Shown here piece after piece: positions 4,400 to 52,381 of a DNA stretch of 64,000 bases (its first letter is position 1; the number at the start of each line of letters is the position of its first letter). The position numbers were made by a program, and so were the translations under genes. The stretch covers positions 31,297 to 95,296 of the forward strand of contig CAYZPC010000001.1 of NCBI GenBank assembly GCA_964480705.1. Direction: 5' to 3'. Source of the DNA: an uncultured archaeon (lineage in GTDB: Archaea > Iainarchaeota > Iainarchaeia > Iainarchaeales > VGJJ01). The notes below the pieces were generated by a model. That model had not been told where the DNA came from and searched no databases. It saw only the letters and a program-made list of their open reading frames with translations.

Positions 4400-4464
4400 G
4401 CTTTACCTGTCACGTCAACCCCTTTTATAAGCGTTTTTGGACGACCTTTTGTATATCGTATAAC

Positions 4465-4535: not shown

Positions 4536-4570
4536 TTGTCGCGCCATTATCCATCTGGCGGATCGGTATA

Positions 4571-4606: not shown

Positions 4607-4804
4607 CAGCCTTTTTACTAAAAAGGCTGATTCGACATCCGGCGGGTCGTCCCCAAGGTGTCGAATCGTCGACACCTTTCTGCTTTTGATTAAACTTTTT
4701 TTCCAGTGGGTGTTGCTTGCAACTCCCATTTCTCGCCACCGTTCATCGAAAGGGGCGTTTACTTCAAGCCCTTGTTTTTTATACCTGTAAACATTCACGT
4801 ATGC

Positions 4805-5107: not shown

Positions 5108-5120
5108 TTTTTGTTCTAAT

Positions 5121-7093: not shown

Positions 7094-7212
7094 ACTAGGA
7101 ATAACCCCGGAAGCCTCTTTTTAAGGGGTTTTGGGACAACGAGCGAAATGGCCCACTGAGGCATTGCAAATGCCTCGATGTAGTCCGCCGAACGACCATA
7201 TGGTTAATTTGG

Positions 7213-13079: not shown

Positions 13080-14044
13080 CGCAGCATCCCATTGTATAGG
13101 TTCACGAGAAATTGTTGATACTCCATGGGTGGTTGTGCGAGCAATTCGGGTGGAACAGCATAATACACAATTTTTTCTCCCACTCCCGAAGAAACAATGA
13201 TGGGAAACACGCGCCCTAGTTCGTTATTCTCTTTGTCGCGCAGCGTGGTGCTCGTGTCCACGCTCAACACGCGTGTGCTTCCGATTCCAATGTCTCCCAC
13301 AATAGCAAAGTCTCCATACAGTTTCAAGTTGCTCGCAATTCCATACACTAATCGATGGTCGGCTCCTGATTCGGGAACTAACTCTCCAATTTGTTGCGCG
13401 GACGTGAAAATAGTGCAATCTCTAAAATCACAATAATTTCCTTTGTATTCTGTTGACAAGTATTGGTCGAATCGCACTGCAATCCCATCTTCTACATCTT
13501 TTCTCGCCCAGGGTGAAATGAGCGTGTGTCCGGCATTTTCATCCACGTCATCTGCGTACAAAAAATCATCATCCGTTGTGAGTTCGGTTCCCGCGTCGCC
13601 TGTCCACACTAATCGTCCGCCCGAGTCAGCGTATTCCATGAATGCGCGGATTTTGTCGGTGCTCATTTGCTTCGCACGTGTAACAATGACTAAATCAAAT
13701 TGTTTCAAATTTCCGGCGGAAACAAAATCTACTTCTTGTCTGGAAATATTGGTGGCGGCAGTAAAGCGCGGGTCTCGGAGGAGGCGCGCTAATTCATCCG
13801 GGTTTCCCAATCCAGCGTCTCCAAACACAATGAGTGTTTTGGGCGGTCCTTTGATGGTGTAGTACACATCGCACCACCCCGGAATGTCCCTACATGTTAC
13901 AATTCCCGACCACGTGAACAATCCTAAAATGAGCAAAACCATTCCAATGGCTAAACCCACGTGGTAGGCATCTTTCAACACGGGTCGCATTTCGGCCATG
14001 AAACGAAAACAAAGGTTGAGGTTTAAAAGAACACACTTATACAT
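13076..14044 (-). CDS. Membrane-anchored extracytoplasmic protein (paralog of 11574..12437)
   Basis: N-terminal TM; conserved blocks shared with 11574..12437. Confidence 0.55.
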   Translation of the reverse strand: MYKCVLLNLNLCFRFMAEMRPVLKDAYHVGLAIGMVLLILGLFTWSGIVTCRDIPGWCDVYYTIKGPPKTLIVFGDAGLGNPDELARLLRDPRFTAATNISRQEVDFVSAGNLKQFDLVIVTRAKQMSTDKIRAFMEYADSGGRLVWTGDAGTELTTDDDFLYADDVDENAGHTLISPWARKDVEDGIAVRFDQYLSTEYKGNYCDFRDCTIFTSAQQIGELVPESGADHRLVYGIASNLKLYGDFAIVGDIGIGSTRVLSVDTSTTLRDKENNELGRVFPIIVSSGVGEKIVYYAVPPELLAQPPMEYQQFLVNLYNGMLR

Positions 14045-23218: not shown

Positions 23219-23333
23219 TGAATGTTCCTCCCATTCTATGTACGTAATACACGCCAAAAGCGGTTTTAAACCCTTCCCGAATGAGGCGCAAAGCAAGGTT
23301 TTTTATGCGCAAAAAAGGTCGTTTGAGTTGATT

Positions 23334-26300: not shown

Positions 26301-26597
26301 CTGGCATCCGATGTGGTGTTTCGCCGTGTCTTTTCAAAAATTCGCGCGGACACCTATAAGCAGCGCGAGCGTTTGGTCCGAGCCCTCCTCGCGGGAATAT
26401 TTTTCATTATCCCTCTTGCCATTGGCTGGTCTTTTTCACTCGTGGCGGGATTTATTTTCACCGTAATGGAGATTGTGGGGTTTGTCGCTGCCGCATATGC
26501 GATCAAAATTCTCCAATACTATGACACGTTCGGCTACAAGGCCATTCAAGGGGTGGCGTCTGCGATTACTCCCCCGCCCCGACCTCCCTCCATGTGA
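23334..26597 (+). CDS. Giant S/T-rich surface protein with signal peptide, poly-Gly linker and C-terminal TM helices
   Basis: MRWFIFGLILVSFSSLAWA signal; over 1000 aa Ser/Thr/Cys-rich; G18 tract; three C-terminal hydrophobic helices. Confidence 0.7.
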   Translation: MRWFIFGLILVSFSSLAWAQVLGGEPDFGSAPANTTINSSPAPIGGFLSFYSSCQDGVFMRSVVCDSPSCDVSSPSLCSSTFSSTASKSCAAPTTVSDWGYHFLVNSACCNAQNNCTLQQTTDPWLVGVEPFPVSTQMVDVSGMDPRGNKLARRSYSSWVSVFNTSSDAKISTTTDAGLTWSSPLSIKSLFSQAQLPLGVSYSSVRVVNPALAVGNNSVELVFEVVDTSGKSNVYYSHCVSSACSNAAAWSLAVPVLDPIVTETNPGAADSTWMYSLGSPKIGITSSSIVHVIFDDSQTNPSLRIQGIFHRYCSLVDGCDKVSAWNASTNGTDILGGVNNGYPRSPHLSISSKGVFAIWMDYSSSGNPSSNSIFVSLYAIPTNTWLSPVSVGSASSFSFPWISAAGNRAGISALSGSTVRVWNCDSSCMSSPSTPTAWSDVSSTFSPFNTLTSLSEVAIAISPLDSSESVLLAAGNLAGNRQLFGMYSRAGGITTTLRRISNTPTSFTFTGLSDVSGNFLWSSQPFLQWAGATPTSGSVYSSNVFSSNNAFPSITITAPTTPVTWQSASSSAYSQTITFTAQDNDIEDELYASIYFGTSPNTTTYLLRDRVDLKTLQGTQSTDTCASGSFTSPRTCVLNLPLFDPATGLLAPNGNYYLVAVLADSKSGSDVFSTPNQVTFSLPSGTISIAAPTAGSSWSGPGTKQLAVDVNNPLFSQLFSLTLSGNSPSGSFMFPSYPVSSYGSTIPPCVKVGNNYSCAYPILPSSSISEGVYALSLDSSVDGLPGPTASVSNITIDFIAPRVVSAQPQGTLTSPPSSVSFALQDFSPIATVPSILINGQTATPTCSFGAQPVTCSAPFPSSITTGPVVVQVTASDAFGNSSPSNFSFTIDGGTTVPPGPGGEGGGGGGGGGGGGGGGPGKVIPRVEDVITRDSEGNVLVNGTPVVIPKTIVETVGTFSNNVVTATSNLVDVVGPSAHAIFLGLCVIAGLASDVVFRRVFSKIRADTYKQRERLVRALLAGIFFIIPLAIGWSFSLVAGFIFTVMEIVGFVAAAYAIKILQYYDTFGYKAIQGVASAITPPPRPPSM
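26031..26090 (+). repeat. (GGN)n simple repeat encoding an 18-20 residue poly-glycine tract
   Basis: ggcggagaaggcggaggcggtggcggaggtggcggtggcggtgggggcggcggt. Confidence 0.8.
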
Positions 26598-30568: not shown

Positions 30569-32062
30569 GTGATGGATTACATGAGTAAGCGTTGGGCGCA
30601 GCCTTCAACACGCTCCACTCCGGAGTTATTCATTAAGCGCAGCCTCATTCGACCGGTGCACGTCATGCTGATCCTCGCGGGAATGGCGTTGCTTCTTTCC
30701 GCGGCGCAGATGCACGCGTACACACCTTCTTCCACTGCCATTTTCTCATCTGTTTCAACGCAGGAATTATTTCTCCAGCCCGATTCGGAGTTGCCCGTGG
30801 ATATTTTCGTCAACACCCCGTATGGGAAACCCGTGAATGTTTCTTTTTCCACTGATTACCCTTCGCACGTATTGCGTGTCGATGGAGAATTGCATTCCAT
30901 TTCCACGTCTTTTCCGTTGCAACGCGAGATGCGCGTGTATGCGAATTGGAACGCTCCGCAGGGAGATTATTTAGTTACCTTGCGCGTGCACGTGCAAGAT
31001 GGTGGACAATCTTTCACTGAAACCCACCCCATTCGTGTTCACGTTGGAGAAAAGGGTTTGCTCACGTACTACACCACATCCAACACTACCCTTCCCGCGC
31101 GTGTTTCCGCGCCCATTTTTTCCACGAATGCCATTAATCTCTCCCGCACCGAGCGCACCACCGTTTCGGTTTCATTTCTCAATACGGGTTCCTCGACTGA
31201 TTATTTGGTTCGTCTCGCCGAACCCTCGTTGAATTTGCTTGTTCACGTGGTGAATGAAACCCATCGCCTCGTGGAAGACGGTTCGCGTGTCACATCTTGG
31301 TTGGATATTACGGCGCGCACGAATACTCCCTTTGGTGAAACTCCCTTGTATGTGGAAGCATACAATATGGTTTCCGGAGAAAAAACTCTTTTGGGCGTTG
31401 TCCGTGTGAATGTGTATGAGACATTCAACCTTGACGCGCGATTGCCTTTTCACTCATTTGTCGTTGAAGAGAATGATTTGATTGAAACCACTCTCTCGCT
31501 TGAAAATACGGAATACTCGGATGTGGATGTCATCATCGAGTCGAGTTCCTCACTCGCTCAGCCTGCCAATTCAACCATTCGTGTTCCGGCAAAAACTTCT
31601 ATTACCGTTCCTCTGTCCATTCACGCTTCCCCCTCACTGGGTGTGCGCGGCGACACATTGTATGTGATGAACCCCAATCTCACCGAGCAGGTTTCTTTTA
31701 CGGTTGAAACGGTTCCCCGCGGCACGTTGAAACCCATTGTTTCGGATGAGAATGCGAGAGGAAATGGTTCTCCTTTCACTCCAATTTCTGGCTTTGTTTC
31801 AGGAGTTTTTTCATCCGTGTGGGGATTGGTAATTATTGCGCTCGCCGGGTTGATTATTTTCTCTCAAAAATTTAGAGAGGGTGTCGTGGCTCGTTTGCCC
31901 AAGCCGGTTCCTCCTGCTAAAGCGCCTCCGGTTCCTAAACCGTCTTCACTTCCCGCACCATCTGCTCCTGCGCCCGTCCCATCCGCGCCTGCTCCAGGAA
32001 TTGTTTCAAATGTTCCTGTTCCCACTTCCAAAACGGATGCGACGCCGGCACAAAATAATTAA
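30569..32062 (+). CDS. Surface protein 3 (signal/anchor, C-terminal TM plus Pro-rich tail)
   Basis: VHVMLILAGMALLLSAA N-terminal helix; C-terminal VWGLVIIALAGLIIF then PKPVPPAKAPPVPKPSS. Confidence 0.6.
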   Translation: MMDYMSKRWAQPSTRSTPELFIKRSLIRPVHVMLILAGMALLLSAAQMHAYTPSSTAIFSSVSTQELFLQPDSELPVDIFVNTPYGKPVNVSFSTDYPSHVLRVDGELHSISTSFPLQREMRVYANWNAPQGDYLVTLRVHVQDGGQSFTETHPIRVHVGEKGLLTYYTTSNTTLPARVSAPIFSTNAINLSRTERTTVSVSFLNTGSSTDYLVRLAEPSLNLLVHVVNETHRLVEDGSRVTSWLDITARTNTPFGETPLYVEAYNMVSGEKTLLGVVRVNVYETFNLDARLPFHSFVVEENDLIETTLSLENTEYSDVDVIIESSSSLAQPANSTIRVPAKTSITVPLSIHASPSLGVRGDTLYVMNPNLTEQVSFTVETVPRGTLKPIVSDENARGNGSPFTPISGFVSGVFSSVWGLVIIALAGLIIFSQKFREGVVARLPKPVPPAKAPPVPKPSSLPAPSAPAPVPSAPAPGIVSNVPVPTSKTDATPAQNN

Positions 32063-32086: not shown

Positions 32087-34018
32087 TTATTTTCGATAAC
32101 TAGTCGCAATGCCCTCATCTAAGCATGAGAGGCACGACACTAAGTTGCTGCACACAGTGGTACAGTCTTTTTCGAGTTTGAAGTTTGGAATGGCCATTTG
32201 GTAAATGTGGCTTGCATTAATGTTGCTTGTTTTATCGGTGGTTAATTTTTCTGTGCTCAAAGAAAAATTGAATTTGTATTCTTTGTATCCGCGGATTTTG
32301 AGAACGGCTTGATACTCTCCTGGGTAAATAGGATTGTATTCCTGCAATTCCGTTGGTTTTCCATTCGGGTCGCGTTTACTTACGGCTGCAGCTGTTGTCA
32401 AATATTTTCCAGGGTTGGCTTGGTTGAACAACAATCCCTCATATGCTTTGTCGCGTGTCGTCGCTGGTTCATTTGCTTCAGGCTGTTGGAGTGGTTCGGC
32501 CAACCAGGATGTTCGGTCATTCACATGAATGAGTTCAAGTGTCATCATGTCATGAATGGCATCATTCGAGAGGCGATCATCCGTGTTGGGGTCGTTGTCC
32601 GGGTCGTTTAATTCAGGATTATTTTTGCGTAATACGTTGAGCGTGTCATTCGTGAGTTTAAATCGGAAAATGTCTTTGGAAGGGTCTTCGCTTGCTTTGA
32701 TGCGCACGGTTTGAATAGTGTCTTCGGTTCCCGGCACGTTGGTTTGTTTGATGCGGTACAACACCGTGATTTTTCCGCGCTGGGATGAGAGGAACGTGGC
32801 TTTGTAATCAAGCACGCTGGCTAATGGAGTAATGTCTCCGAAATCGGCTAAAATTTCTTTGCTGTGAGTGACTGTTTTCCAATAGGGAACAAATGTTCCA
32901 TTTTCCGCGGCACATAATCGCATTCCAAGAGTGAGTTTTCCCATTCCGGGTAAATTTACAATTTTATTGGACGCGTATTCTTTCGTAGTGTTGGGGTGCG
33001 CGGTGTTGTATGCATCTACTGCTCCCGTAATCGTACTAACCGGTTGTCCAATGTCGGTTCCAAACAATCCGACCGTTTGAATGGTTGTATAAATATCAAT
33101 TCCTTGTCCTATTAAATTGCGAAAAATATCCCATCCAATACTTTGTACGGTGTCAATGCGCGACGCGACACTTGCGGCAATGGTTTCATTATTGTTGAAG
33201 TGCCAAATTTGCAGCAAATAAACAGCGTTTCCTTTTGAATCTTGGAAAATAATATTTCTCGGGCTTAGTGCATATTCGGATGTCGTTGTAGTGGAGATTT
33301 TCTCATCCAAGTCTGCTCCCCCTTCGCGAAATTCAGGAGAGGAATCTCCTAATGTAATGAATTGGGGCGCGTCATTTCCAATTTCACAATATTCATTCAA
33401 CACCGGCGTTGCTTCCGCCACTTGCTGAGCAGTGGGTGTTGCGGTTGGAGCGGTGGGTGTGGTCGTTCCGGGCGTGGATGGATTTACTGCTTGTAACACG
33501 GGCAAGCTTGCTTCGAGTTTAGGCAAAAAATCCGTTGCCATGTAGGCTCCTTCCGTGTCATCGAGCTGGCAATCGCTGTTTGATAATAATCCTGAGAAGC
33601 TCATGTTGCTTGATTCTAATTCCGATTCATAATCTAATGCATACTGCGCCGAGAACGCGTCCCACACGCTGGTTTCACAATCAATCGCAGAATAGGTGTC
33701 TCCAATTTTAACGTAAACAATTCCTTCCGTGTTATCCGTTTCTTCTTCCACAAAGAGATACGTGTTGTTAATGGTTGGATCTGCTCCTTCGGTGAAAATG
33801 AATGCTTGTTGTCCGGCTAAATCGCGCATTTTTCTCAATAGGGGAACAACATTGTCTCCTGATGAGAGCGCGGGAATATTTTTTCCCCCAATGCTTTCTT
33901 GTCGAATAACCGTGTATCCTCCGCTGCCCTGTGCTTCGGAGTCGGTGGCATAAAAGAGGAATAACCCCCCTACTACGAGTGTTAGAATGATTCCGGCGGC
34001 GAGATAATGGGGTTGCAT
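32087..34018 (-). CDS. Large N-terminally anchored extracellular protein (643 aa)
   Basis: MQPHYLAAGIILTLVVGGLFLFYATDSEA; T/P-rich linker; no recognisable catalytic motif. Confidence 0.6.
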   Translation of the reverse strand: MQPHYLAAGIILTLVVGGLFLFYATDSEAQGSGGYTVIRQESIGGKNIPALSSGDNVVPLLRKMRDLAGQQAFIFTEGADPTINNTYLFVEEETDNTEGIVYVKIGDTYSAIDCETSVWDAFSAQYALDYESELESSNMSFSGLLSNSDCQLDDTEGAYMATDFLPKLEASLPVLQAVNPSTPGTTTPTAPTATPTAQQVAEATPVLNEYCEIGNDAPQFITLGDSSPEFREGGADLDEKISTTTTSEYALSPRNIIFQDSKGNAVYLLQIWHFNNNETIAASVASRIDTVQSIGWDIFRNLIGQGIDIYTTIQTVGLFGTDIGQPVSTITGAVDAYNTAHPNTTKEYASNKIVNLPGMGKLTLGMRLCAAENGTFVPYWKTVTHSKEILADFGDITPLASVLDYKATFLSSQRGKITVLYRIKQTNVPGTEDTIQTVRIKASEDPSKDIFRFKLTNDTLNVLRKNNPELNDPDNDPNTDDRLSNDAIHDMMTLELIHVNDRTSWLAEPLQQPEANEPATTRDKAYEGLLFNQANPGKYLTTAAAVSKRDPNGKPTELQEYNPIYPGEYQAVLKIRGYKEYKFNFSLSTEKLTTDKTSNINASHIYQMAIPNFKLEKDCTTVCSNLVSCLSCLDEGIATSYRK

Positions 34019-34086: not shown

Positions 34087-36039
34087 TTAAATCCGCTTAT
34101 TTTCCTTTTCTTTCCAAAATCCCTTTATTTTTTCAGCGGGGCTCGTGGAGAGTTCATACTCGTGGGCGGGAGGAAAACAGTCCTTGTAGTTGGTTTGCGT
34201 GTAGCGCTTGTCCAGAAACACCACCACTCCCTCGTCTGTGGGGGTGCGAATAACCCTTCCAGCGGCTTGCAATGCTTTATTCATCGCGGGATAAATGTAT
34301 CCGTATTGCCATCCTTTCTGGAAGCGTTTTTCATAATAATTAACCAGTGCTTGCGTTTCCAAATTCATTTCCGCGAGGGGAATCCCCACGACAATTACTC
34401 CTAACAATTCGTTTCCAGGAAAATCCAATCCTTCTCCAAAACTCCCGCTCGTGCACGCCAGCAACACGGCTCCAAATCCGCGCGAGTGTTGTTTGAACTC
34501 ATTCAACAATTTTTCGGTTTCGTGCATTTTCATTCCTTCGCGCTGAAATAATAATTGTCGCGGCGTGTAGTCCTGCATTTTTCTCCCAATGTTATCCAAT
34601 AATTGAAACGATGGAAAAAATACTACGGTGTTTCCCGGAATTTGGTTGACCATTTTTCCGGTCTCGGATGCAAATGTGGTGAATGTTTCCTCGCTGCGTT
34701 CCGTAAATTTAGTCGATGCAAGGGGAGCAATCATTTGCAACCTATTTTGTTTGGGAAACGGAGAGGGGTAATACCCGTGTTCTGTTTTTTCTTTATTTAC
34801 TCCAATAATATCCGCAAACATTTTCGTGGGATGCAGGGTGCCTGACATGAGTAAGCATCCGTGCATTTTCTCCAACACTTTTTTGGTAAGCGGAGCCGGG
34901 TCGAGTGCTTTTACACCAACCGAATAATCATCTGCGTATCCCCATTTTTTGACTACTCGTGCGAGTCCTTCGCTTTCATTCGCCCATTTTTCTAAAAATT
35001 CTCCCACTTGAATAAGGAAAGAGGAATCTTTTCCGCTTTTTTCTAAATAATCCACTCCGCGCATTTCGCATTGCAGCGCAAATTCTTCCACATCCAGTTT
35101 TTCGGCTAAAAAAGTGCTCCATTTTTTTTCATCTAATAATTCTTCATTTCCACTCATTTTTTTTCCGTGCGCGCGCAAATGATGCTCCATGCGCGAGAGA
35201 ATTTTTTCCATTTCTTCATCTTTCAAATAGTGTGCTTCCTCTGCCGCTCGTGTGAGTTGTTTCGTGTTGAGCGTCGTTGAAAGTAATCCGCGCACACGCT
35301 CGGGAAGGTTGTGCGCTTCATCCACAATCAATAGACAATTTTCAGGTTTCTTTCCTAATTTTGGCAGCACGAGTTCACTGACACTCGGAGAAAAAATGTG
35401 ATAGTAATCCGCAATAATCACATTTGCTTTTTTGGCTAATTCCATGCTGGTTTCAAATGGACACATGGCCCAGGGCTGCATGCCCATTTGAAATGTGCTT
35501 GATTCATCTTTGATTTCTGCAGAGGAATGAACACCTTTCATTCTCGTGGAAAACTCTTGCCGGGCAATTTTGGCTTTTTCGCGTTGCAGCGTATCATATC
35601 CTTTCGCGTGTCCGTATGGAACGCACGTTTGGCTTTCTCTCTTCTTTCGGCACATCTCATAAAATCCTCTCCCTTCTTTCTGCTGGGTTTGCTCATCAAT
35701 GCATAAGTGTTTCTTCCCCACCAAATCCACCACGCGGAGTTTCAAATCATATTTAGCATTTATTCCACGTAACACGTCTACTGCAATAGCGTGCTGAGCG
35801 TTTTTGGGGGTGAGAAAAATAATCGTGAGAGTAGGGTCCTTTTGCAGTGCCACTCCAAGTGCGGCGCTCAAACTCGCGTCCGTTTTTCCTAATCCTGTTT
35901 CCGCATGTGCGAGGAAAATTTTTCCATTTTCAAATGCTTCATGTGCATCTATGATGAGTTTTTCCTGTCCTTCGCGCGGAGCATCAAACCGGAATGGAAT
36001 GGTTTTGGGCAGCATGCTAGAGTTACGGCCGGCACGCAT
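34087..36039 (-). CDS. xpd: XPD/Rad3-family (DinG-like) Fe-S DNA helicase
   Basis: AETGLGKT Walker A; LIVDEAHNLP DEAH box; 4-Cys Fe-S insert; QAAGRVIRTPTDEGVVVFLDKRY motif VI. Confidence 0.88.
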   Translation of the reverse strand: MRAGRNSSMLPKTIPFRFDAPREGQEKLIIDAHEAFENGKIFLAHAETGLGKTDASLSAALGVALQKDPTLTIIFLTPKNAQHAIAVDVLRGINAKYDLKLRVVDLVGKKHLCIDEQTQQKEGRGFYEMCRKKRESQTCVPYGHAKGYDTLQREKAKIARQEFSTRMKGVHSSAEIKDESSTFQMGMQPWAMCPFETSMELAKKANVIIADYYHIFSPSVSELVLPKLGKKPENCLLIVDEAHNLPERVRGLLSTTLNTKQLTRAAEEAHYLKDEEMEKILSRMEHHLRAHGKKMSGNEELLDEKKWSTFLAEKLDVEEFALQCEMRGVDYLEKSGKDSSFLIQVGEFLEKWANESEGLARVVKKWGYADDYSVGVKALDPAPLTKKVLEKMHGCLLMSGTLHPTKMFADIIGVNKEKTEHGYYPSPFPKQNRLQMIAPLASTKFTERSEETFTTFASETGKMVNQIPGNTVVFFPSFQLLDNIGRKMQDYTPRQLLFQREGMKMHETEKLLNEFKQHSRGFGAVLLACTSGSFGEGLDFPGNELLGVIVVGIPLAEMNLETQALVNYYEKRFQKGWQYGYIYPAMNKALQAAGRVIRTPTDEGVVVFLDKRYTQTNYKDCFPPAHEYELSTSPAEKIKGFWKEKENKRI

Positions 36040-38223: not shown

Positions 38224-39246
38224 TTGATGACTCGCGCCAAACCTCGTTCTGCAGGTGGTTATTTGAGTAAGCGTAAACGAAATTTGCTCTTACAATCGCG
38301 CATTGCGTGGCTGCGCGAAGTGCATGAAAAACATCCGGATCTGATTCGACTGACGACTCGTGAAAAAATAGAAAAACGGTATGGCATTCCTAAAAACTAT
38401 TTGGAACAATTCTTTGAAGGAAATAATTCCACTCGACAGCTGCGCACAAAAATCGAATTGGCGCAGAGGGTGCTAAATGATCCTGACCGCAAGTGGTTGG
38501 CGGAGGATTATCGCATCTGGCCATATGCTCGAATTGTTGCTCTCGCCCCCACTAACTCTGCAAAAGAAATTTATCAAACAATTCTCGCTGAACGTGCTTC
38601 ATTTCCGGATGCTTCCCGGCGAAAAGTTTTCTCTATTCATGCTATCAGTAATTTGATTAAGACATTTCTTCTTCGCCCAGATGGAATGGGGGTGATTTGG
38701 GAGAAGCGTGCAAAGAAAATGAAAAATGCTCGTCCAGATAACCGTTTATCGGAAGAGGTGCGAAGAGAATTGGTTCAAGAAGCGATTCCCTTGTCCAATG
38801 CTTCAAAACGTGCTTTGGAGGTTAGTGATTTACTCTTGGACCGTTTAATCTATGAGTCGAGAAAAGTGAAAGGTTTAGAGAATTTGTCTCAAAGTGAGCG
38901 CATAACGCGTTGGAGAAAATTTGTCAGGGTATGTATGCATCGGTGGGTGATCGATGCTTTGCGGAAAAGAGATTTTCAAAGTCGACGCACTAGCCCGCTT
39001 AAACAAAAATTTGTTGAAGTGAGTGAGTTGCCATCCTCCAAGATTTCGGTTTCGCTTGATTCTCATTTGCCAACCGGTTTTAAGTTAACGCCAAAAGATA
39101 GGGAAGTCCTTGATTTGTTGCGGAGGGGTTTTACTAAAATTCAAATTGCTCGCGAATTAGGGCTTACTGCGCACGCGATTACGCTCAGACTATTTTCGCT
39201 GCGCAAGCGGATTAGCAAGGCTTCTCAAAAAAATTCAAAATTGTAA
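38224..39246 (+). CDS. Putative transcriptional regulator with C-terminal LuxR/GerE-type HTH
   Basis: LTPKDREVLDLLRRGFTKIQIARELGLTAHAITLRLFSLRKRI. Confidence 0.55.
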   Translation: MMTRAKPRSAGGYLSKRKRNLLLQSRIAWLREVHEKHPDLIRLTTREKIEKRYGIPKNYLEQFFEGNNSTRQLRTKIELAQRVLNDPDRKWLAEDYRIWPYARIVALAPTNSAKEIYQTILAERASFPDASRRKVFSIHAISNLIKTFLLRPDGMGVIWEKRAKKMKNARPDNRLSEEVRRELVQEAIPLSNASKRALEVSDLLLDRLIYESRKVKGLENLSQSERITRWRKFVRVCMHRWVIDALRKRDFQSRRTSPLKQKFVEVSELPSSKISVSLDSHLPTGFKLTPKDREVLDLLRRGFTKIQIARELGLTAHAITLRLFSLRKRISKASQKNSKL

Positions 39247-40374
39247 AAAGTGCACTTCGTCCATTTTTTCGCGGTACATTTCTACATCGTCATTAAATTT
39301 TTTCATGAATGTAGTCATTTTTTCCACCGTGATTTGTTTCAATTCTCCGGAGAGCATTTTTCCGCTTTTGTAATCATCATGAATTTTTTTCAATTCATTA
39401 TCATTCTCAACTAAATGTTGTTTCAGCAATTCATACACCATGTCTTTCTCAATTTCCGCACCCAGTTTTCGTTGTTCTTCCGCTGTTTTTCGTCCACCGG
39501 TGACAGCGCCCTTGATTACTTTTTCAACCGCTTTCAAATCATCCGGCAGGGTAATGTTTCCTTTGGGATTTGATTTGCTCATCTTCGCATTTCCATCCAT
39601 GGATGGGAGAAATTTGTGATACATCGAAGAAATGGGCATGAAGCGCTGCGTGCTTTCCATCTTATGCAAGTAATCTCGACACAAGCGCACGTGGGGTTCC
39701 TGGTCTAATCCCACGGGAATAATTCCTGGTGTTGGGCGTCCCGCTCTTTCTTGGGGGAAAATCATATCGCCTATTTGCGTGACCGCACTCATGATGCGTC
39801 CCGGGTCGGCGTTTCCATACACTCCTTTGAACTCGTTGAGCGTAATGCGTTGCGCGGCCTCAAATGCAAGTTTGGTTACCGTGCGGTTTTCGCTTTGAAA
39901 ATAAAAATGGGTTTTTTTGATGTCTAATCCCAACGCCAAATACGCTGGAATGTGAAATCGCATCGCGCGTTTTTTTCCTTCTTCAATGCTCACGCCGCGC
40001 GCCGCAGCGCTTTCCAAGTCTGCCACGAGAACAAATGTTTCTCCTCCCTGCTCTTGGAAATATTTTACATTTTCTACCACACTCTTGGTTCCAAAGTGGA
40101 GTTTTTCGGCGGAAGGCATGACTCCGGTTAGCACATAGAATGGTTTGTGATTTTTGATGCACTCGGAAATGCGTTTCATGTCGCGCCCCGCGAACACTAC
40201 CTCGCGGCGCATGAGTCGGTTGGGGTTGGGGAACATTTCCACGTTAAACGGTTCTAACCCAAAGTGCTGCGCCACTTGCTTGTAGTCCGAAATCAGGTTG
40301 TCTCCCCATGGGTCGAGTTGTTCGCTGGCCATACGTGTACAAGCGCACACGGCCTTTAAAATCGGGGGGTGCAA
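39235..40374 (-). CDS. trpS: Tryptophanyl-tRNA synthetase (archaeal/eukaryotic type)
   Basis: Class I fold; VGLDQEPHVRLCRDY (GxDQDPx); KMSKS; C-terminal SGKMLSGELKQ resembles TrpRS anticodon-binding helix. Confidence 0.75.
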   Translation of the reverse strand: MHPPILKAVCACTRMASEQLDPWGDNLISDYKQVAQHFGLEPFNVEMFPNPNRLMRREVVFAGRDMKRISECIKNHKPFYVLTGVMPSAEKLHFGTKSVVENVKYFQEQGGETFVLVADLESAAARGVSIEEGKKRAMRFHIPAYLALGLDIKKTHFYFQSENRTVTKLAFEAAQRITLNEFKGVYGNADPGRIMSAVTQIGDMIFPQERAGRPTPGIIPVGLDQEPHVRLCRDYLHKMESTQRFMPISSMYHKFLPSMDGNAKMSKSNPKGNITLPDDLKAVEKVIKGAVTGGRKTAEEQRKLGAEIEKDMVYELLKQHLVENDNELKKIHDDYKSGKMLSGELKQITVEKMTTFMKKFNDDVEMYREKMDEVHFLQF

Positions 40375-40380: not shown

Positions 40381-40830
40381 TCATTCGATGAACTGTTTAA
40401 TGTGTTCAAGAATTATATCCAATTTTTCTTTGGGTAAAATGTCGCTAGTCTTTGGCAAATAGTGCCGACCAAATTCCGTATCCATCCACGTTTTTCCGTC
40501 AAAAGTAATTGGTTCGTCATGTCGCGGTTTCATGTGCCAGTGAACGTGAGGGTTGTATGGTTTTTCTTTGAACGCGTGATTCATGAGGCATGTCCAATTA
40601 AACAGCGTAAATGGAAATGCCTTTTTGAGACCCGTTTCAAGTTTTTCAGTCACGCGGTGAAAGTCAACCATCTCTTCATCCGTAAGTTTAGACAAACTTT
40701 CAACATGACGTTTGGAAGAAATGAGGCATCTTCCCAAATAATTTTGGTCCCAGCTCAGGAAAACGTTCCAGTGTTTCGTTTCAAAAATAGGGTATTCCTT
40801 GATTGGGCAGATGTGGCATTCTTTTTCCAT
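40381..40830 (-). CDS. HIT-family (histidine triad) hydrolase
   Basis: NPHVHWHMKPR HxHxHxx motif. Confidence 0.8.
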   Translation of the reverse strand: MEKECHICPIKEYPIFETKHWNVFLSWDQNYLGRCLISSKRHVESLSKLTDEEMVDFHRVTEKLETGLKKAFPFTLFNWTCLMNHAFKEKPYNPHVHWHMKPRHDEPITFDGKTWMDTEFGRHYLPKTSDILPKEKLDIILEHIKQFIE

Positions 40831-40952
40831 AATTTACTTGTGAAACGTAGAGATAAAATCCTATGTTTTATTTTTTTCGGCGGTTTACCTTCCGCCCGTT
40901 TTTATTCAGTTTATTCGTGTTCGTTTCGCACTCACTTTTGGAGGTCGTTTCT

Positions 40953-41801
40953 ATGGATCAAAAAGATGCGTTGGTTGTTTTTCAAGATACAAAAATTAGG
41001 AGAATATTACATAATAATGAATGGTTTTTTTCAGTCGTAGACGTGGTTGGTGCTTTGACAGATAGTCCAACGCCCCGACAATACTGGGGCAAAGTAAAGG
41101 ATAGGGAGTTCAACGAGATTCAGTTGTCCCCAATTTGGGTACAACTGAAATTACCTTCTTCGGACGGCAAACTATACGAAACCGACTGCGCCAACACCCA
41201 AAACATGTTCCGCATCATCCAATCCATCCCTTCTCCCAAAGCCGAGCCCTTCAAACAATGGTTAGCCAAAGTAGGCTATGAGCGCGTGAAAGAAATTGAA
41301 AACCCTGAATTAGCCCAAGCGCGCATGGTCGAAACCTACCGCGCGAAAGGATATTCCAATGAGTGGATTGAAAGACGTCTGCGTGGCATTGCCGTGCGGG
41401 ACGATTTGACGAATGAGTGGAAAAAACGCGATGTGAAAGAGGGAGTGGAGTTTGCCATCCTCACGGCGGAAATTTCTTCCGCCACATTCGGAATGACTCC
41501 AACCGAATACAAGGATTTCAAGGGGTTGAAAAAAGAAAACTTGCGCGACCACATGAATGATTTGGAGTTAATTTTTACCATGCTCGGAGAAGCATCCACT
41601 GCACACGTTGCGCGTGGAAAAGACGCGCAGGGTTTTGTTGAGAACCAGCAGGCCGCCGTGGTGGGTGGAACGATTGCAGGGAATGCGCGAAAGGAATTGG
41701 AAAATAAAAGTGGAGAAAAGATTTCCACATCTGAAAATTATCTTTCTGTTCCTGAGAGTCAGAAGCGTTTGGAGCGCTCGGCTAAAAAACACATTGAGTG
41801 A
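40953..41801 (+). CDS. Bro-N / DinD-like (DNA-damage-inducible protein D family) protein
   Basis: N-terminus IRRILHNNEWFFSVVDVVGAL fits Bro-N; C-terminal NEWKKRDVKEGVEFAILTAEISSATFGMTPTEYKDFKGL block. Confidence 0.55.
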   Translation: MDQKDALVVFQDTKIRRILHNNEWFFSVVDVVGALTDSPTPRQYWGKVKDREFNEIQLSPIWVQLKLPSSDGKLYETDCANTQNMFRIIQSIPSPKAEPFKQWLAKVGYERVKEIENPELAQARMVETYRAKGYSNEWIERRLRGIAVRDDLTNEWKKRDVKEGVEFAILTAEISSATFGMTPTEYKDFKGLKKENLRDHMNDLELIFTMLGEASTAHVARGKDAQGFVENQQAAVVGGTIAGNARKELENKSGEKISTSENYLSVPESQKRLERSAKKHIE

Positions 41802-41825
41802 ATAGTTTATTGGAGATGCTTCACG

Positions 41826-42296
41826 ATGGTCAAAAAGCGCTGGGATAAACCCAAATCGGACAATGCCTTCCTGAATGATGTTTCATTCATTGTTTTCGTC
41901 GTGCGTTTTAATTATCGGGTGGTTGAGAAGAAGTGGCCGGAAATAACGAAAGCGTTTCATCATTTTGATATTGCAAAGCTCTCCAAATTAGACGAAACGG
42001 ATGAAAAAACCATGGAAAAATTCTTGCGTGCGCCGGGAATGATAAAAAACAAGTGGAAAATGCAAAGCGTTATCATCAACGCCAAAAAGTGTGCGGAGAT
42101 TCAACGCGAACATGGAAGTGTGTTGAAGTGGATTGCTAAAGCCAAAAAAGAATACAAAAAATCCCCCTTGCTCGCTCCCGAATTGAGAGATATTTTCCGC
42201 GTGTTTAGGGGAATTGGCCCGATGACAAGCACGTGGCTGGAAAGTTTGTTCATGTCTGATAAATCGTATGTCGAGTATGAAATGCCCGACAAGTGA
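41826..42296 (+). CDS. tag: DNA-3-methyladenine glycosylase I (Tag)-like, divergent (lacks canonical N-terminal Zn-binding residues)
   Basis: Colinear with E. coli Tag core (FHHFDIAKLSKLDETD..IKNKWKMQSVIINAKK). Confidence 0.6.
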   Translation: MVKKRWDKPKSDNAFLNDVSFIVFVVRFNYRVVEKKWPEITKAFHHFDIAKLSKLDETDEKTMEKFLRAPGMIKNKWKMQSVIINAKKCAEIQREHGSVLKWIAKAKKEYKKSPLLAPELRDIFRVFRGIGPMTSTWLESLFMSDKSYVEYEMPDK

Positions 42297-42306
42297 GTTG
42301 TTGATC

Positions 42307-42329
42307 AAACTTTTTGGTAAAAAGTTTGG
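42307..42329. repeat. Palindrome CAAACTTTTTGGTAAAAAGTTTG preceded by TTGAT (A5/T5 family)
   Basis: 11 nt after the tag stop; near-identical copy at 53261. Confidence 0.6.
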
Positions 42330-42562
42330 TAGGGTATGAAATGCCGGACTAATATCAACTGCTTTGTGCAGGAATGCTTCGCCATCGTTCAAATCCGCAC
42401 GCGTAACAGTGCAGCGCCACACTTCCTTGTGCGGGGTGCACTATTTTTTTCGAGTGGCACGTGGGACATTTGCTCGCGCGCGTGGGGATCATAAAAGATA
42501 ACGACTTTTAGGTGTTGATAAATGCTTGCCAGCCAAATCGCCAGCAAAAATTATTCAAATGA

Positions 42563-43053: not shown

Positions 43054-44079
43054 TTACAGCAACACGGCCACAATCACGAAATACAATATGATAGATGTCA
43101 CATCCGAGATAATCGTTGCGAGGGGCCCGCTTCCTAATGCGGGGTCGTGTCCTGTTTTTTGGAATGCGTATGCGGTGACAAAGGAGGTGATGCTTGATAT
43201 CATGAGTGTGGCGAATATGGCGGCTGAAATTACAAGTGTTTCTCCATTTCCTTTCCATAAGAGGAAAATAATTCCATACACGATGGATGCAATCATGAGG
43301 CTGATGATGATGGAGATGGTGAGTGTGCGCACAAAATAGGGAATCGTTTTCAATTCCTTTCCCATAATGGATATGTCTCGAATGTAGAGTGTTTGATTTT
43401 GCGTTCCAAGCGCATTACTCATGTACAATATCGCTGGGATGAAAAACGCCACGATGAGATGTTCATCCAGCACGCGTGCAAACTGGTCCATGATTCCCGC
43501 GGCAATAATCACTCCCACTAATCCAATGAGCAGCCATGGGGCGCGGTGCACAATGCTTTCGCGAATGGGAATGTGCATCGTGTCTTCATAATCTAAGTGC
43601 GCGTGGTGCACACCCGAAAAGGACAGGATGTGTTCGCGCAGGGTTCGGTTGATGATGTGGAGAATTTTATTCGTGACAATGACTCCTACGAGTTTTCCTT
43701 GTTTCACAATGGGGATGGCTCGCAGGTTGTGCTGCAATGCGAGGTGTGCGATTCGTTCGCGGTGCGTGTCGGGTCGAACGTAAATGATTTCTTTTTGCAT
43801 GACGCTTTTGATGGGCGTGGTGGGGGCGTAGCGAAATAAATCGCGGATTGAAATAACCCCCACTAGTTTTTCGGAGGAATTTTGAATGTAAATGTATTCC
43901 ACTTCATCAAAGTCTCCTCCATTTTTGGAGATGTGTTCGTCCACTTGCTTGATGGTCCATGTTTCGGGAACCACAGGAAAGTGTCCCGCTCCATAATATG
44001 CAGCCGTTCCATGCGCGGTGTGTTCGGCTGAAAAAGTGCTCCGCATTTCGGGGGTGGTTGGTTTGCGGGCAATCGTCAT
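43054..44079 (-). CDS. mgtE: Magnesium transporter MgtE (CBS pair plus TM domain, no N-domain)
   Basis: Two CBS motifs then 5 TM helices with a conserved MgtE-like pattern. Confidence 0.8.
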   Translation of the reverse strand: MTIARKPTTPEMRSTFSAEHTAHGTAAYYGAGHFPVVPETWTIKQVDEHISKNGGDFDEVEYIYIQNSSEKLVGVISIRDLFRYAPTTPIKSVMQKEIIYVRPDTHRERIAHLALQHNLRAIPIVKQGKLVGVIVTNKILHIINRTLREHILSFSGVHHAHLDYEDTMHIPIRESIVHRAPWLLIGLVGVIIAAGIMDQFARVLDEHLIVAFFIPAILYMSNALGTQNQTLYIRDISIMGKELKTIPYFVRTLTISIIISLMIASIVYGIIFLLWKGNGETLVISAAIFATLMISSITSFVTAYAFQKTGHDPALGSGPLATIISDVTSIILYFVIVAVLL

Positions 44080-48981: not shown

Positions 48982-49809
48982 CTAATTTAAACGTTCCAAC
49001 AACCCAAAATCGTACACGCTGTCTTCCACTAACCACGCGCGAAAATGGTCCAGTTTTCCTTGCAGAAAGGGCGATAGTGCTCCTTCTCGCGGATCGCTTC
49101 CCGGCGCAGCAAAATTGAATGAGGGCAGCACTAAAATGCGCTTGTTTTCATAATTTCCCACGAGAAAGCATTTGTATTTTTGTTTGGTGGCCCCATCTTG
49201 TAATTCAATCGCGGGGTGGTCGTGTCCAATAATCACCGTGTGAGCGTTTTCATACGCTTCATCGTTTGGAATTTCGTGTCCGTGGCACACGTATGCGCGC
49301 GAGTGTTCTAACAGCACGCCTTTTTTCTCTAATTTTACTTTAGCAAATCGTGCAATGGGTTCAATGGCAATGTCATGATTTCCTTTGATAATGGTTATTC
49401 TGTCCGAGTGTTCGCTCAATAATTCAAGTAGTTGAATGACCTCTCTCCATTCTTGGTTGGATGCATTTCCAAACCCATGTTTAATATCTCCATTCAAAAA
49501 AATGTGCGAAACATGTTTTTTTTCGGTAAAGAGCGCGCGCAAATGTTCCTTCACTTCTTTGAAATTGAATCGCGGAAGAAACACTCCTTGGTTGTTGTAG
49601 TGTTCTTCTAATCCTAATTGTAAATCCCCCAAAATGAGGCAATCATCCGCAGGCACGTAGAGTGCTAAATCCATTGCTTGAAAACCTGGGGCAATTTCCA
49701 CGGGAAGAAGTGTAGTGTGCGTGTGGGCAGGCGCCTCACTATGCGTCGCGTGAATTAGTTTTCCCAGGGGGTGTTTTTCTTTTTTCTCAGGCTTCTTGGG
49801 CGGTGACAT
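48982..49809 (-). CDS. mpe: Metallophosphoesterase (calcineurin-like), MPE nuclease partner of Lhr
   Basis: GDLQLG, NGDIKHGFG, GNHD, GHEIP, GHDHP motifs; overlaps the Lhr stop. Confidence 0.75.
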   Translation of the reverse strand: MSPPKKPEKKEKHPLGKLIHATHSEAPAHTHTTLLPVEIAPGFQAMDLALYVPADDCLILGDLQLGLEEHYNNQGVFLPRFNFKEVKEHLRALFTEKKHVSHIFLNGDIKHGFGNASNQEWREVIQLLELLSEHSDRITIIKGNHDIAIEPIARFAKVKLEKKGVLLEHSRAYVCHGHEIPNDEAYENAHTVIIGHDHPAIELQDGATKQKYKCFLVGNYENKRILVLPSFNFAAPGSDPREGALSPFLQGKLDHFRAWLVEDSVYDFGLLERLN

Positions 49810-52381
49810 TCTGCATCACCTTCTCGTGCATGCGCTTGATAAAACTGAGCCTGTCTTCGAGTTTGACCAGGTCATAGTGTCCTTGCGCAATGAGGTTGAA
49901 CGCGAAGGGAGAAAACGTGTCGAGGTGCACAATATTCACCTTAATCATTCCCTGCTCAATGGCGGTGATGATTTCTTTGGCGTGGGGCATGTCCATTAAG
50001 TCTTCTAATACTTCACGGCGTGCCTCGCGTAAAATGGGGAAGTTTTCATCCATTCGCATAACAGCTGAAAGTAAGAGGCGTGAGGACATTTGCTGTCGTC
50101 CAACAGACTTGGTGCGCCCCATGTAGGTGCGCAATATCATAAACGCTCGCGTCGCACAATGTCTGAATCTCCTTCGGAGAACTTCCGAGGTGCGCAATGC
50201 TATTTCTAGAATTTTTTCAAACTCCCATGAGTGTACGAGTGAGATGAGTTTTTCGGGCGAGGCTTTTCCTCCAAATCGGAGGGCAAAGCCATTGTCTCCG
50301 AGTAATATGTCCACATCCTGATGAATCATTCGTCCTAATGCATACGCGTAGGCGCGCGACATCGCATCATTTACTCTCCTTCCAAAGAGGGTGTGAAAAA
50401 CAAAATTGGTCATTCCTTCTTCTTTCACTACTTCTAACAACACGCTTCCGTGGTGGGGAATCTCGGCAAAATGGAATTGCTGGTAAAAATATTCATAGAT
50501 GGCATTCGCTGCGTATTTGTCCACATACAAGTAGGAGTCAATGAAAGTGAGAATTTCTTTTTTGCTTTTTTTGAGTCGGAATTTTTCTTGCATGAGTTTT
50601 CTAAATTTTTGAATTTCCAGCGCCAAATCGTATGATAGTGGGAGCATCTCTGACACCCAGCTTGGAATCGTGGGGATTCCTCCGGATGCTTTAGCTTGTA
50701 CGGTCATTCCGCGTGCGAATTGAAACTCCATTGTGTTTCCACCTAATGCAAATCGGTCTCCTTTTTTGAGGCGGTCCATGAATGCTTCATCAAATGTTCC
50801 AATGACGTGTTCGCCAATCTTCACTTTCACTTTTGCTTCATCGGGAATCGTTCCCAAGTTTGTCATGTATAGCATGCGCGCCATTTTTCCGCGTTTTCCC
50901 ATCATGCCAGTGGCTTCATCTATCCACACTTTCGCGTACACGTGTCTAACTTCCAATCCCGCGTAATGTCCGCTCAAATAATCAATGATCGCATTGAAAT
51001 CCGCTCGCGTGAGGGTCTCATACGGGTATGCGCGCGTGACTTCCTCATACACTTCTTCAATTTTTCGCGGATCATTTACGACCATTCCAATAATGTGCTG
51101 CGCCAACACATCAAGTGCATTTTTGGGTACGTGAACACGGTCAATGTTTTTTTCAATGGCATTTTTCAGCAGCACGCCGCACTCTACTAAATCATCTCGG
51201 TCTAACACGACAATTCGTCCCTTCACCACATCATGCAGTTTGTGTCCCGCGCGTCCAATTCGTTGCAATGCGCGCGCCACTCCCTTTGGGCTGCCTAACA
51301 AAATGACCAAATCGATGTATCCAATGTCAATTCCTAATTCAAGCGACGTAGACGAGACGCACACTTTGTATTTTCCCGTTTTCAAGTTGTCCTCTACTTG
51401 AAGTCGGTGTTCGCGTGACAAACTCGAGTGGTGGGCGCCAATAAATCCTTCATATTTGCTCGGATATTTTTCTTTCAAGTGATGCACCACTCTCTCGGTG
51501 GCCGCCCTCGTATTCGTGAAAATTAATGTTGAGCGGTGGTTTCCAATTAAATCATCTAGCAAGCGGTACACCGCTTCATCCATTTTTTTCTGAGTAGTAT
51601 TAATCAAATCCGGTAATGGAGAGAGTACTTTCATGTCCATTTCCTTGATGTGGGACACATCCACTACTTTGCACGGTCGCGTTTTTCCCTTGTTTTCGTT
51701 TCCAACTAAATAGTTAGCCACTTCATCCAACGGTGCCACGGTCGCGGATAACCCAATGCGTGTAATAGCTGGAGAGAGTCGCTGCAAGCTTTCCATGCTG
51801 AGTGCGAGCATCGTTCCTCGTTTTCCGCTGGCAATCGCGTGAATTTCATCCACAATAATCCAGCGCGCCTCTTTCATTGCGAGAGAAAATTTTGGTGCGG
51901 TGAGCATGATAGCAAGTGTTTCCGGTGTCGTGATGAGGATGTGAGGCGGTTTCTTCAGCATCGCTGCGCGTTCATTTTGAGGCGTGTCTCCGGTTCGCAC
52001 CCCAATGCGAATAGGATATTCTTTTCCCAATTTTGCGGCTGCCTTTTGAACTTCTTCTAAGGGTGCTTTCAAATTTTTTTCAATGTCGTTTGACAATGCT
52101 CGCAGCGGAGAAACATACACCGCGTACACTTTGTCCTCCAGTTGTTGTGCGTCCGAGAGGTGCATTAATTCCGATAACACGGCCGCAAACGCGGAGAGTG
52201 TTTTTCCCGTTCCGGTGGGGGCGGAGATGAGAATGTTGTCGCGGCGGTGAATGGATACAATGGAATAAAGCTGCGGCTCCGTAAATCCCTTGAAGTGGTG
52301 CTTGAAGTACCCCCCCAAGAGCGGGTGCAAGGATGCATACACTTCCGTCTCGGGAAACTTTTGGGTGAGGCGCGTAATCAT
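49787..52381 (-). CDS. lhr: Lhr-like large superfamily-2 DNA helicase (Lhr-Core: RecA1-RecA2-WH-domain 4)
   Basis: APTGTGKT, DEIH, SATV, and 864-aa length with Lhr-like C-terminal domains. Confidence 0.85.
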   Translation of the reverse strand: MITRLTQKFPETEVYASLHPLLGGYFKHHFKGFTEPQLYSIVSIHRRDNILISAPTGTGKTLSAFAAVLSELMHLSDAQQLEDKVYAVYVSPLRALSNDIEKNLKAPLEEVQKAAAKLGKEYPIRIGVRTGDTPQNERAAMLKKPPHILITTPETLAIMLTAPKFSLAMKEARWIIVDEIHAIASGKRGTMLALSMESLQRLSPAITRIGLSATVAPLDEVANYLVGNENKGKTRPCKVVDVSHIKEMDMKVLSPLPDLINTTQKKMDEAVYRLLDDLIGNHRSTLIFTNTRAATERVVHHLKEKYPSKYEGFIGAHHSSLSREHRLQVEDNLKTGKYKVCVSSTSLELGIDIGYIDLVILLGSPKGVARALQRIGRAGHKLHDVVKGRIVVLDRDDLVECGVLLKNAIEKNIDRVHVPKNALDVLAQHIIGMVVNDPRKIEEVYEEVTRAYPYETLTRADFNAIIDYLSGHYAGLEVRHVYAKVWIDEATGMMGKRGKMARMLYMTNLGTIPDEAKVKVKIGEHVIGTFDEAFMDRLKKGDRFALGGNTMEFQFARGMTVQAKASGGIPTIPSWVSEMLPLSYDLALEIQKFRKLMQEKFRLKKSKKEILTFIDSYLYVDKYAANAIYEYFYQQFHFAEIPHHGSVLLEVVKEEGMTNFVFHTLFGRRVNDAMSRAYAYALGRMIHQDVDILLGDNGFALRFGGKASPEKLISLVHSWEFEKILEIALRTSEVLRRRFRHCATRAFMILRTYMGRTKSVGRQQMSSRLLLSAVMRMDENFPILREARREVLEDLMDMPHAKEIITAIEQGMIKVNIVHLDTFSPFAFNLIAQGHYDLVKLEDRLSFIKRMHEKVMQNVTAQEA

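Follow-up and report, generated by a model that had tools for sequence, protein, structure and literature searches.

In the 64,000-nucleotide stretch of DNA analysed here (the window), which comes from a tiny DPANN archaeon of the Iainarchaeia, a Bro-N gene (ORF1) stands 24 nt upstream of, and on the same strand as, the gene for a short Tag-like protein (ORF2, here called TagL). We put the probability at roughly two in three that an accessory Bro-N cassette has been juxtaposed with a conserved, vertically inherited TagL, and that the two do not form a dedicated DNA-damage module. Since the Bro-N gene sits between the TagL promoter and the TagL start codon, the operon most likely arose when that gene inserted. 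The pairing would then be ordinary genome flux and for that reason should not be carried forward as a "DNA-damage operon". Features of the locus are summarized in Table 1. The open reading frame coordinates and domain calls of an earlier sequence-only reading of this DNA hold up and are well clear of chance, with Pfam scores of 41.8 bits for Bro-N (cut-off 25.6) and 48.7 bits for Adenine_glyco (cut-off 25).

Table 1. Features of the trpS-TagL region, numbered from the first letter of the window
Feature	Position	Strand	Remarks
trpS, archaeal-type TrpRS	39235..40374	-	NCBIfam NF008925, E 3.8e-104; syntenic in relatives; left conserved flank of the slot
HIT-family hydrolase gene	40381..40830	-	Pfam HIT, E 3.7e-8; accessory cassette in the trpS-TagL slot
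Putative promoter region	40877..40908	+	Conserved in sequence comparisons; presumed promoter role
Bro-N cassette	40909..41825	+	Bounds set against L017, which has HIT only, and L016, whose slot is empty
ORF1, Bro-N gene, 282 aa	40953..41801	+	Bro-N and helical DinD-type C-terminal domain; PADLOC PDC-S13
ORF2 (TagL), 156 aa	41826..42296	+	Zinc-less, Tag-like helix-hairpin-helix glycosylase fold
Hairpin and degenerate copy of the TagL 3' end	42306..42352	+	Candidate for either a terminator or a recombination scar
Hypothetical gene, 119 aa	42563..42922	-	Right conserved flank; 47-87% identity, syntenic in relatives
mgtE	43054-44079	-	Beyond the 119-aa gene

The trpS-TagL slot and the insertion site

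TagL is syntenic and vertically inherited in the Iainarchaeia. Gene order around it is kept, running from XPD and a KaiC-like ATPase through further genes to trpS (-), TagL (+), the 119-aa gene (-), which has no family match in Pfam or NCBIfam, and mgtE (-). Comparison of TagL-bearing contigs with the window by tblastn revealed that the space between trpS and TagL is a slot of variable content, with four states. The slot is empty, measuring 60-104 nt, in L016 (TagL 92% identical to that of the window), L012 and L019 (84%), L014 (83%), L030 (82%), L020 (80%) and L021 (79%), and holds neither Bro-N nor HIT in L003 (66%), L006 and L026 (56%) and L025 (60%). It contains HIT only in L017 (90%) and L022 (81%), Bro-N only in L015 (92%) and L024 (73%), and both in the window, L018 (89%) and L013 (70%), the last of which additionally holds a PIN/MazE pair. 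L023 (76%) carries the Bro-N gene on a short contig that does not reach the HIT side. The HIT gene is found in the window, L018, L013, L017 and L022 and is missing from the other relatives compared, its presence being independent of that of the Bro-N gene. In an NJ tree built on concatenated TrpRS, TagL and the 119-aa protein, slot states are interspersed at every depth, and the closest clade (the window, L015, L016, L017 and L018) contains all four of them.

At least nine distinct related genomes have a solitary TagL directly behind the common promoter, a finding that goes against the earlier claim that the pair is a DNA-damage unit, and the TagL relatives in Woesearchaeota and Nanoarchaeota lie in different contexts with no Bro-N neighbour. 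Five diverged lineages, with TagL 70-92% identical, have the Bro-N gene immediately 5' of TagL; the spacing is that given above for the window and 2-38 nt in L024 and L023, and the two genes overlap by 4 nt in L013. Base composition shows no anomaly at 40-42 kb (GC 0.44-0.46 there and about 0.46 in the window overall).

An upstream element, YNGGCG-N(12-20)-TTTTTAT, is common to all TagL loci. In the window, the motif TCGGCGGTTTACCTTCCG at 40877-40894, which occurs once in the whole window, is followed on the forward strand by a TATA-like TTTTTATTCA at 40899-40908. At empty sites the TATA-like box is about 25-35 nt from the TagL ATG, so that TagL would there have little or no 5' leader, and at sites occupied by Bro-N the conserved TagL element instead sits 5' of the Bro-N gene. 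Homology between the window and L017 extends from the HIT start codon to TTTTTATTCA, breaks, and restarts at the TagL ATG, which places the cassette at approximately the limits in Table 1. The cassette comprises its own leader with a GGAGG at 40940-40944, the coding sequence, and the 24-nt spacer, which holds an SD-like GGAG for TagL at 41812-41815. A search for terminal direct or inverted repeats flanking the cassette yielded only short matches at chance level. Since there is no promoter-sized space 5' of TagL, ORF1 and TagL are likely co-transcribed as an operon; the sequence-only reading had proposed this, and the short spacer, its GGAG and the position of the TagL promoter upstream of the Bro-N gene agree with it.

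The Bro-N genes of the window and L015 are 71-91% identical in DNA over the 3' two-thirds, a backbone-level similarity, and only 43-75% identical in the part for the Bro-N domain. This mosaic fits a shared history at the locus, on top of which there was recombination or the DNA-binding domain diverged rapidly. A search for an SOS box upstream of 40953, a check that the earlier reading had suggested, found none there (CTGT-N8-ACAG, one mismatch allowed), as expected given that the host is an archaeon; the window as a whole has six one-mismatch sites against 13 expected by chance.

The Bro-N protein ORF1 and its family

ORF1 starts at the ATG at 40953, with a GGAGG 8 nt upstream. Its homologues begin at MDQKD, and gene callers likewise give 282 aa on identical short contigs. 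A longer reading from 40863 was rejected, as it would run through the promoter region. The Bro-N domain spans about residues 10-106 (Pfam match 14-106, E 1.6e-10). ORF1 matches PADLOC family PDC-S13 over its full length (model PDLC04920, E 1.2e-118), with residues 1-278 aligned to positions 1-281 of the 286 in the profile, and PDLC04919, the model of the E. coli DinD type, matches residues 122-279 (E 6.8e-7). There is no NCBIfam family at E<0.1 and no match in a sequence search of the PDB, and nuclease, integrase or transposase domains were not detected with Pfam, NCBIfam, PADLOC or PHROG. AlphaFold models the Bro-N domain confidently and the C-terminal domain at pLDDT 30-60; because this part of the model is weak and Foldseek returned nothing at E<=0.001, no fold-based inference is drawn for ORF1.

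Escherichia coli DinD (b3645) resembles ORF1 in length (274 against 282 aa) and in combining Bro-N with a helical C-terminal domain. The protein, taken from NC_000913, has Bro-N at residues 10-105 (E 1.5e-7) and matches PDLC04919 at E 2.4e-121 and PDLC04920 at E 2.2e-16 (residues 122-250). Both proteins fall in PDC-S13 with reciprocal significant matches to each other's sub-model, although the sub-models differ (PDLC04920 for ORF1, PDLC04919 for DinD), and they have the C-terminal motif KGLKK..L.DHM..EL in common. Their pairwise similarity, however, is not significant (BLASTP E 0.36). Alignment of the ORF1 family with the single E. coli DinD sequence by hhalign gave a probability of 5%, which by itself is too weak, so the homology rests on the PADLOC profiles. 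Judged by its profile grouping, its DinD-matching C-terminal half and the shared C-terminal motif, ORF1 belongs to the DinD family broadly defined (PDC-S13) but is not a DinD orthologue. The DinD-like C-terminal block of the earlier reading is accordingly upheld at the profile level (PDLC04919 and PDLC04920), and orthology is not, given the BLASTP result and the missing NCBIfam match. The hosts differ as well, that of ORF1 being an archaeon without LexA or SOS box. E. coli DinD, the founding member of the family, is SOS-induced and for decades has served as a standard SOS reporter, with no settled function. Inhibition of RecA by DinD is not known outside E. coli. In the one paper found that joins DinD with defence islands, dinD serves only as a reporter.

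PDCs are phage defence candidates, which are predictions only, and PDC-S13 was nominated through members located inside loci for BREX, DISARM or type I RM systems (Payne et al., bioRxiv 10.1101/2024.01.29.577857). Unlike these nominated members, the copy in the window lies outside any recognisable defence system, and its neighbours trpS, HIT, TagL and mgtE have no significant PADLOC match. The surroundings of ORF1 homologues are heterogeneous in the 80 metagenomic loci that were compared. Four of these loci have the family member embedded between cas9 and cas1, which adds guilt-by-embedding evidence for the DinD/PDC-S13 family as candidate defence proteins. In 16 of 80 a co-directional downstream gene follows within 50 nt or overlaps, and in none of the 80 does TagL or this HIT lie within 5 kb, which also speaks against the pair as a DNA-damage unit. 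Two other Diapherotrites genomes have the Bro-N gene beside a Fic or a nucleotidyltransferase gene, with no TagL within 5 kb. Our literature search found PDC-S13 mentioned by name nowhere, and no work combining Bro-N with Cas9 and cas1.

More than 8,000 proteins were retrieved, so the family is very large, and it is also highly conserved. The best 120 are 68-77% identical to ORF1, and the named taxa among them are Woesearchaeota, Nanoarchaeota, Aenigmarchaeota, Diapherotrites/Iainarchaeota, Altiarchaeota and Methanoperedens. Every one of the closest relatives that has a name (70-77% identity) is archaeal, contrary to the earlier statement that Bro-N/DinD is characteristically bacterial or viral. 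When ranked by Bro-N identity, the relatives form a plateau at about 70-77% in a comparison set that is biased toward window matches. Relatives on bacterial plasmids are 34-58% identical, and 22 of 72,556 plasmids carry one; 291 IMG/VR contigs have relatives, with 46-66% identity among the 80 listed; and four of 50,697 GenBank phage records contain one.

Phage Bro/Ant antirepressors share the N-terminal Bro-N domain with ORF1, which has weak matches to the PHROG "anti-repressor Ant" through this domain only. They differ in their ANT/KilAC C-terminal domain, which was not detected in ORF1 with Pfam, and the best PHROG match of ORF1 is not Ant but phrog_15286, a family of unknown function. ORF1 as a phage antirepressor was rejected on the lack of an ANT/KilAC domain, the restriction of Ant matches to Bro-N and the scarcity of relatives in phage records.

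TagL and the zinc-less mini-Tag clade

The closest known system to TagL is Tag of E. coli and S. aureus (PF03352, TIGR00624; PDB 1LMZ, 2OFK and 4AIA), from which TagL differs in being 30 residues shorter, with an identity of 14-20%. Its Adenine_glyco match (PF03352, E 1e-12) covers only profile positions 15-116 of 177, and it fails the curated Tag cut-offs (TIGR00624, 36.1 bits against 232.5; NF007678, 25.9 against 349). Alignment with E. coli Tag bears out the earlier observation that this 156-aa protein lacks the zinc-snap Cys and His: all four ligands (Cys4, His17, His175 and Cys179) are missing, and an alignment of the 29-member TagL family has no invariant Cys or His. The ligands are highly conserved among Tag homologues (PMC9266487).

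The binding pocket is altered as well. TagL is without the N-terminal segment that holds Tyr16 and His17 in Tag, Glu38 of Tag corresponds to Val23, and Gly43-Leu44-Ser-Trp46 is replaced by Arg-Phe-Asn-Tyr, with Tyr30 at the Trp46 position. In Tag, Glu38, Tyr16 and Trp46 belong to the pocket for 3-methyladenine (3mA), and Glu38 and Tyr16 make contacts specific for it. What is invariant in the TagL family is a GxI[KR]x..K motif, an N-A pair and the HhH G-I-G at residues 129-131; the family alignment has no conserved acidic residue after the HhH. The fold is that of an HhH glycosylase, and Tag is the best structural match. According to DSSP, the model has only two beta strands, residues 2-7 and 148-153, which must therefore pair with each other, and they are predicted to do so at the site of the zinc snap, where Tag has its zinc ligands. 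The PDB holds dedicated structures of the Y16F and E38Q mutants of Tag.

A search of 1.84 billion representatives with the TagL profile retrieved 2,497 at E<=1e-3, 320 at E<=1e-10 and 10 at E<=1e-30. Many of these relatives have 145-165 aa, no zinc ligands and, where Tag has Glu38, a hydrophobic residue (IF.AG[LF].W); few carry an organism name, and one of those few is from Patescibacteria. On these sequence features TagL falls into a zinc-less "mini-Tag" clade of uncharacterised proteins, in which the Glu38 position is Val, Ile or Phe throughout. This would make a sizeable Tag-fold clade, 320 50%-identity clusters at E<=1e-10 from DPANN, Patescibacteria and metagenomic lineages, that has neither the zinc snap nor the 3mA-binding glutamate. 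Its Iainarchaeal and Woesearchaeal TagL subfamily (35 proteins) appears from the model to add a terminal beta clamp. Homologues in the clade are automatically annotated as "DNA-3-methyladenine glycosylase I" in the source databases, a name that is probably wrong or at least a prediction. Because the zinc snap and the Glu38 and Tyr16 contacts have been lost, TagL is most likely a DNA- or lesion-binding protein or a glycosylase of altered specificity, and not a canonical Tag.

Origin of the gene pair

TagL is a lineage-conserved gene of the Iainarchaeia that normally stands alone behind its own TATA box, and the intergenic slot between it and trpS would be a small hot spot for accessory genes, which HIT (-) and Bro-N (+) cassettes occupy independently and which in one relative also holds the PIN/MazE pair. 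The Bro-N cassette of the window is placed exactly between the TagL TATA box and the TagL ATG. The Bro-N gene would then probably be transcribed from the TagL promoter, and TagL would become the second cistron, served by the GGAG in the spacer. The patchy cassettes are best read as presence/absence alleles that relatives exchange when their conserved flanks recombine homologously, and that are now and then gained or lost. As for the products, the Bro-N protein most likely acts without a partner in stress or defence; its Bro-N domain would bind DNA and its highly conserved helical DinD-type domain would act as an effector or interaction module. TagL keeps the HhH DNA-binding scaffold of Tag, probably with the pairing of its N- and C-terminal strands in place of the zinc snap, and lacks the Glu38 and Tyr16 contacts for 3-methyladenine. 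Read in this way, the locus shows cleanly how, in nature, an accessory gene can come to separate the TATA box of an archaeal gene from its start codon, an insertion that turns a near-leaderless gene into the second cistron of an operon.

The strongest counterpoint is that recurrence in five lineages and tight spacing exceed what a single random insertion predicts, and selection for linkage could account for them. We see only a slim chance of a real functional link between Bro-N and TagL. A functional DNA-damage or surveillance operon, in which the two proteins act together and linkage is selected, with, for example, TagL recognising alkylated or modified DNA and Bro-N/DinD modulating recombination or signalling, is quite unlikely. 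TagL is intact and promoter-proximal without Bro-N in most relatives, L016 (92%) and L017 (90%) among them, its Woesearchaeota and Nanoarchaeota relatives have no Bro-N neighbour, and Bro-N genes are not accompanied by TagL within 5 kb in any of the 80 loci, nor in the two other Diapherotrites genomes; the 3mA pocket residues are missing from TagL, and no SOS box was found upstream of ORF1. These observations outweigh the arrangement in five diverged lineages of the Iainarchaeia, where the genes share a strand and lie close together or overlap, the lack of a TagL promoter of its own where the Bro-N gene is present, the SOS induction of an E. coli DinD of like architecture, and the DNA-binding folds of both proteins. 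It is very unlikely that the two, in their recurrent and translationally coupled arrangement, form a selected DNA-surveillance or defence module in which TagL, its 3mA recognition lost, senses modified or foreign (e.g., viral) DNA and has the DinD-family protein as its effector partner. If true, Bro-N-TagL would be a new two-gene module in DPANN archaea, with an effector from a family that would also plug into bacterial type II CRISPR-Cas (cas9-cas1) and type I RM systems.

TagL might instead be a true 3-methyladenine DNA glycosylase I in pared-down form, engaged in ordinary base-excision repair beside a phage-type antirepressor. This is unlikely: even though the Adenine_glyco match exceeds the Pfam gathering score, Tag is the best structural match, homologues bear that name in the source databases, and an aromatic residue at the Trp46 position (Tyr30) and the invariant HhH GIG are kept, Glu38 is Val, Ile or Phe across the mini-Tag clade, the Tyr16/His17 segment is missing, and the scores against TIGR00624 and NF007678 are far under their cut-offs. 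Tyr16 and Glu38 are residues that contact 3mA and are the ones changed in the Y16F and E38Q structures of the PDB. The antirepressor half of this explanation also conflicts with an ORF1 that has no Ant/KilAC domain and a family seen in only 4 of 50,697 phage records. Alternatively, the Bro-N gene may be a self-propagating, site-preferring cassette, homing or promoter-trap-like, that repeatedly inserts 3' of the TATA box and hijacks transcription. Such a cassette would explain why the left boundary falls directly after the TATA box and why a clean segment the length of a gene is what distinguishes occupied from empty sites, and it would agree with the very high Bro-N identity across phyla, the relatives on 291 IMG/VR viral contigs and the close or overlapping co-directional downstream genes in 16 of 80 loci. 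It is highly improbable, however, as neither a nuclease, integrase or transposase domain nor terminal direct or inverted repeats were found in our searches, insertion contexts elsewhere are heterogeneous, and the backbone-level DNA identity of the window and L015 in the 3' two-thirds of the gene fits common descent at the locus better than insertion anew each time.

The sequence-only reading had proposed lateral acquisition for several genes. Recent acquisition of XPD or TagL is not indicated, since XPD lies in the conserved backbone of the relatives and TagL is part of the same synteny; for Bro-N and HIT, accessory genes that come and go, the proposal stands in spirit. The nearest relatives of these two that carry a name come from other archaea and not from bacteria or phages. 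Among the DNA-damage genes named for the window, HIT, XPD (34090-36039) and Lhr (49790-52381) with an adjacent metallophosphoesterase (48985-49809) were confirmed. Just downstream of TagL, a perfect hairpin of 10 bp (42306-42328), followed by the degenerate copy of the 3' end of TagL, is common only to the window and L017.

Bro-N homologues adjoining cas9

In four of 80 metagenomic loci (L063, L091, L106 and L112), a homologue of ORF1, the DinD-like protein with a Bro-N domain, is encoded directly 3' of cas9, which was called with TIGR01865 at E <=1e-115. These homologues are 55-63% identical to ORF1. Because the cas9 stop and the Bro-N gene overlap by 4 nt in L091, L106 and L112, the gene arrangement suggests that the two are co-translated there within a type II CRISPR-Cas operon. 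L063 has a gap of about 36 nt, and its Bro-N ORF is called on the opposite strand. Type II cas1 (TIGR03639, E about 1e-93) comes next after Bro-N in L063, L091 and L106. A literature search found no publication joining Bro-N with Cas9 and cas1.

Coordinates of features in the window and in the compared loci
Locus	Feature	Position	Strand	Remark
Window	322-aa ORF	13079-14044	-	No Pfam match
Window	1119-aa ORF	23238-26594	+	No Pfam match
Window	497-aa ORF	30569-32059	+	No Pfam match
Window	643-aa ORF	32090-34018	-	No Pfam match
Window	TCGGCGGTTTACCTTCCG motif	40877-40894		Just 5' of TATA box
Window	Bro-N domain	40986-41215		Allele ..EWFFSVVD..
Window	Hairpin and TagL-end copy	42306-42352 region
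Window	45-aa ORF	42355-42492	-	CPxC...CxxC
L013	PIN/MazE pair	3782-4469
L018	Additional sequence	6460-7755		About 1.3 kb
L063	cas9; Bro-N region; cas1	1221-4961; about 5001-5588; 5620-6723
L091	cas9; Bro-N; cas1	359-4837; 4837-5673; 5666-6577
L106	cas9; Bro-N; cas1	733-4986; 4986-5810; 5817-6728
L112	cas9; Bro-N	343-4986; 4986-5816		Sequence stops short of any cas1

Bro-N alleles and Tag-like proteins

At least two allele types of this Bro-N domain exist among the DinD-like proteins, that of the window being shared with the relative's locus L018, whereas L015 and L024 carry ..EWWFVLED... DNA identity between the two types falls to 43-75%. Since the alleles diverge while the remainder of the gene follows the genome backbone, the pattern suggests that this DNA-binding module has recombined as a domain or been under diversifying selection.

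The representative protein library yielded hundreds of Tag-fold proteins of 145-165 aa (matches P0156-P0303) that are zinc-less and without Glu38, one of the few organism-named examples coming from Patescibacteria. The sources auto-annotate them as 'DNA-3-methyladenine glycosylase I'; they are devoid of the defining residues of Tag, and the glycosylase name is putative.

Sequences flanking the genes

The TCGGCGGTTTACCTTCCG motif occurs once in the window, and all Iainarchaeal relatives (L012-L024) keep both the GGCG(G) core and the spacing before TagL, the zinc-less Tag-like protein gene, or before Bro-N. It may be a regulator-binding site, a BRE-proximal element or part of the divergent trpS/HIT promoter. 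Directly after the TagL stop lies a perfect 10-bp hairpin, CAAACTTTTT-GGT-AAAAAGTTTG, followed by a degenerate second copy of the TagL 3' end (..ESL..YEMPD*). Together they form an insert of roughly 60-75 nt, common to the window and L017 only; it would be a terminator or else a scar left by recombination. Convergent to TagL is the 45-aa zinc-ribbon-like ORF, smaller than usual ORF-size cut-offs, whose DNA is conserved 3' of TagL in L012-L017 and L013.

Elsewhere in the window, four ORFs had no Pfam match at E<=1e-5. The TagL neighbourhood is a small flexible islet within otherwise syntenic DPANN genomes.

Two further stretches of accessory DNA were observed: a PIN/MazE toxin-antitoxin pair lies between trpS and HIT in L013, and additional sequence separates TagL from the 119-aa gene in L018.
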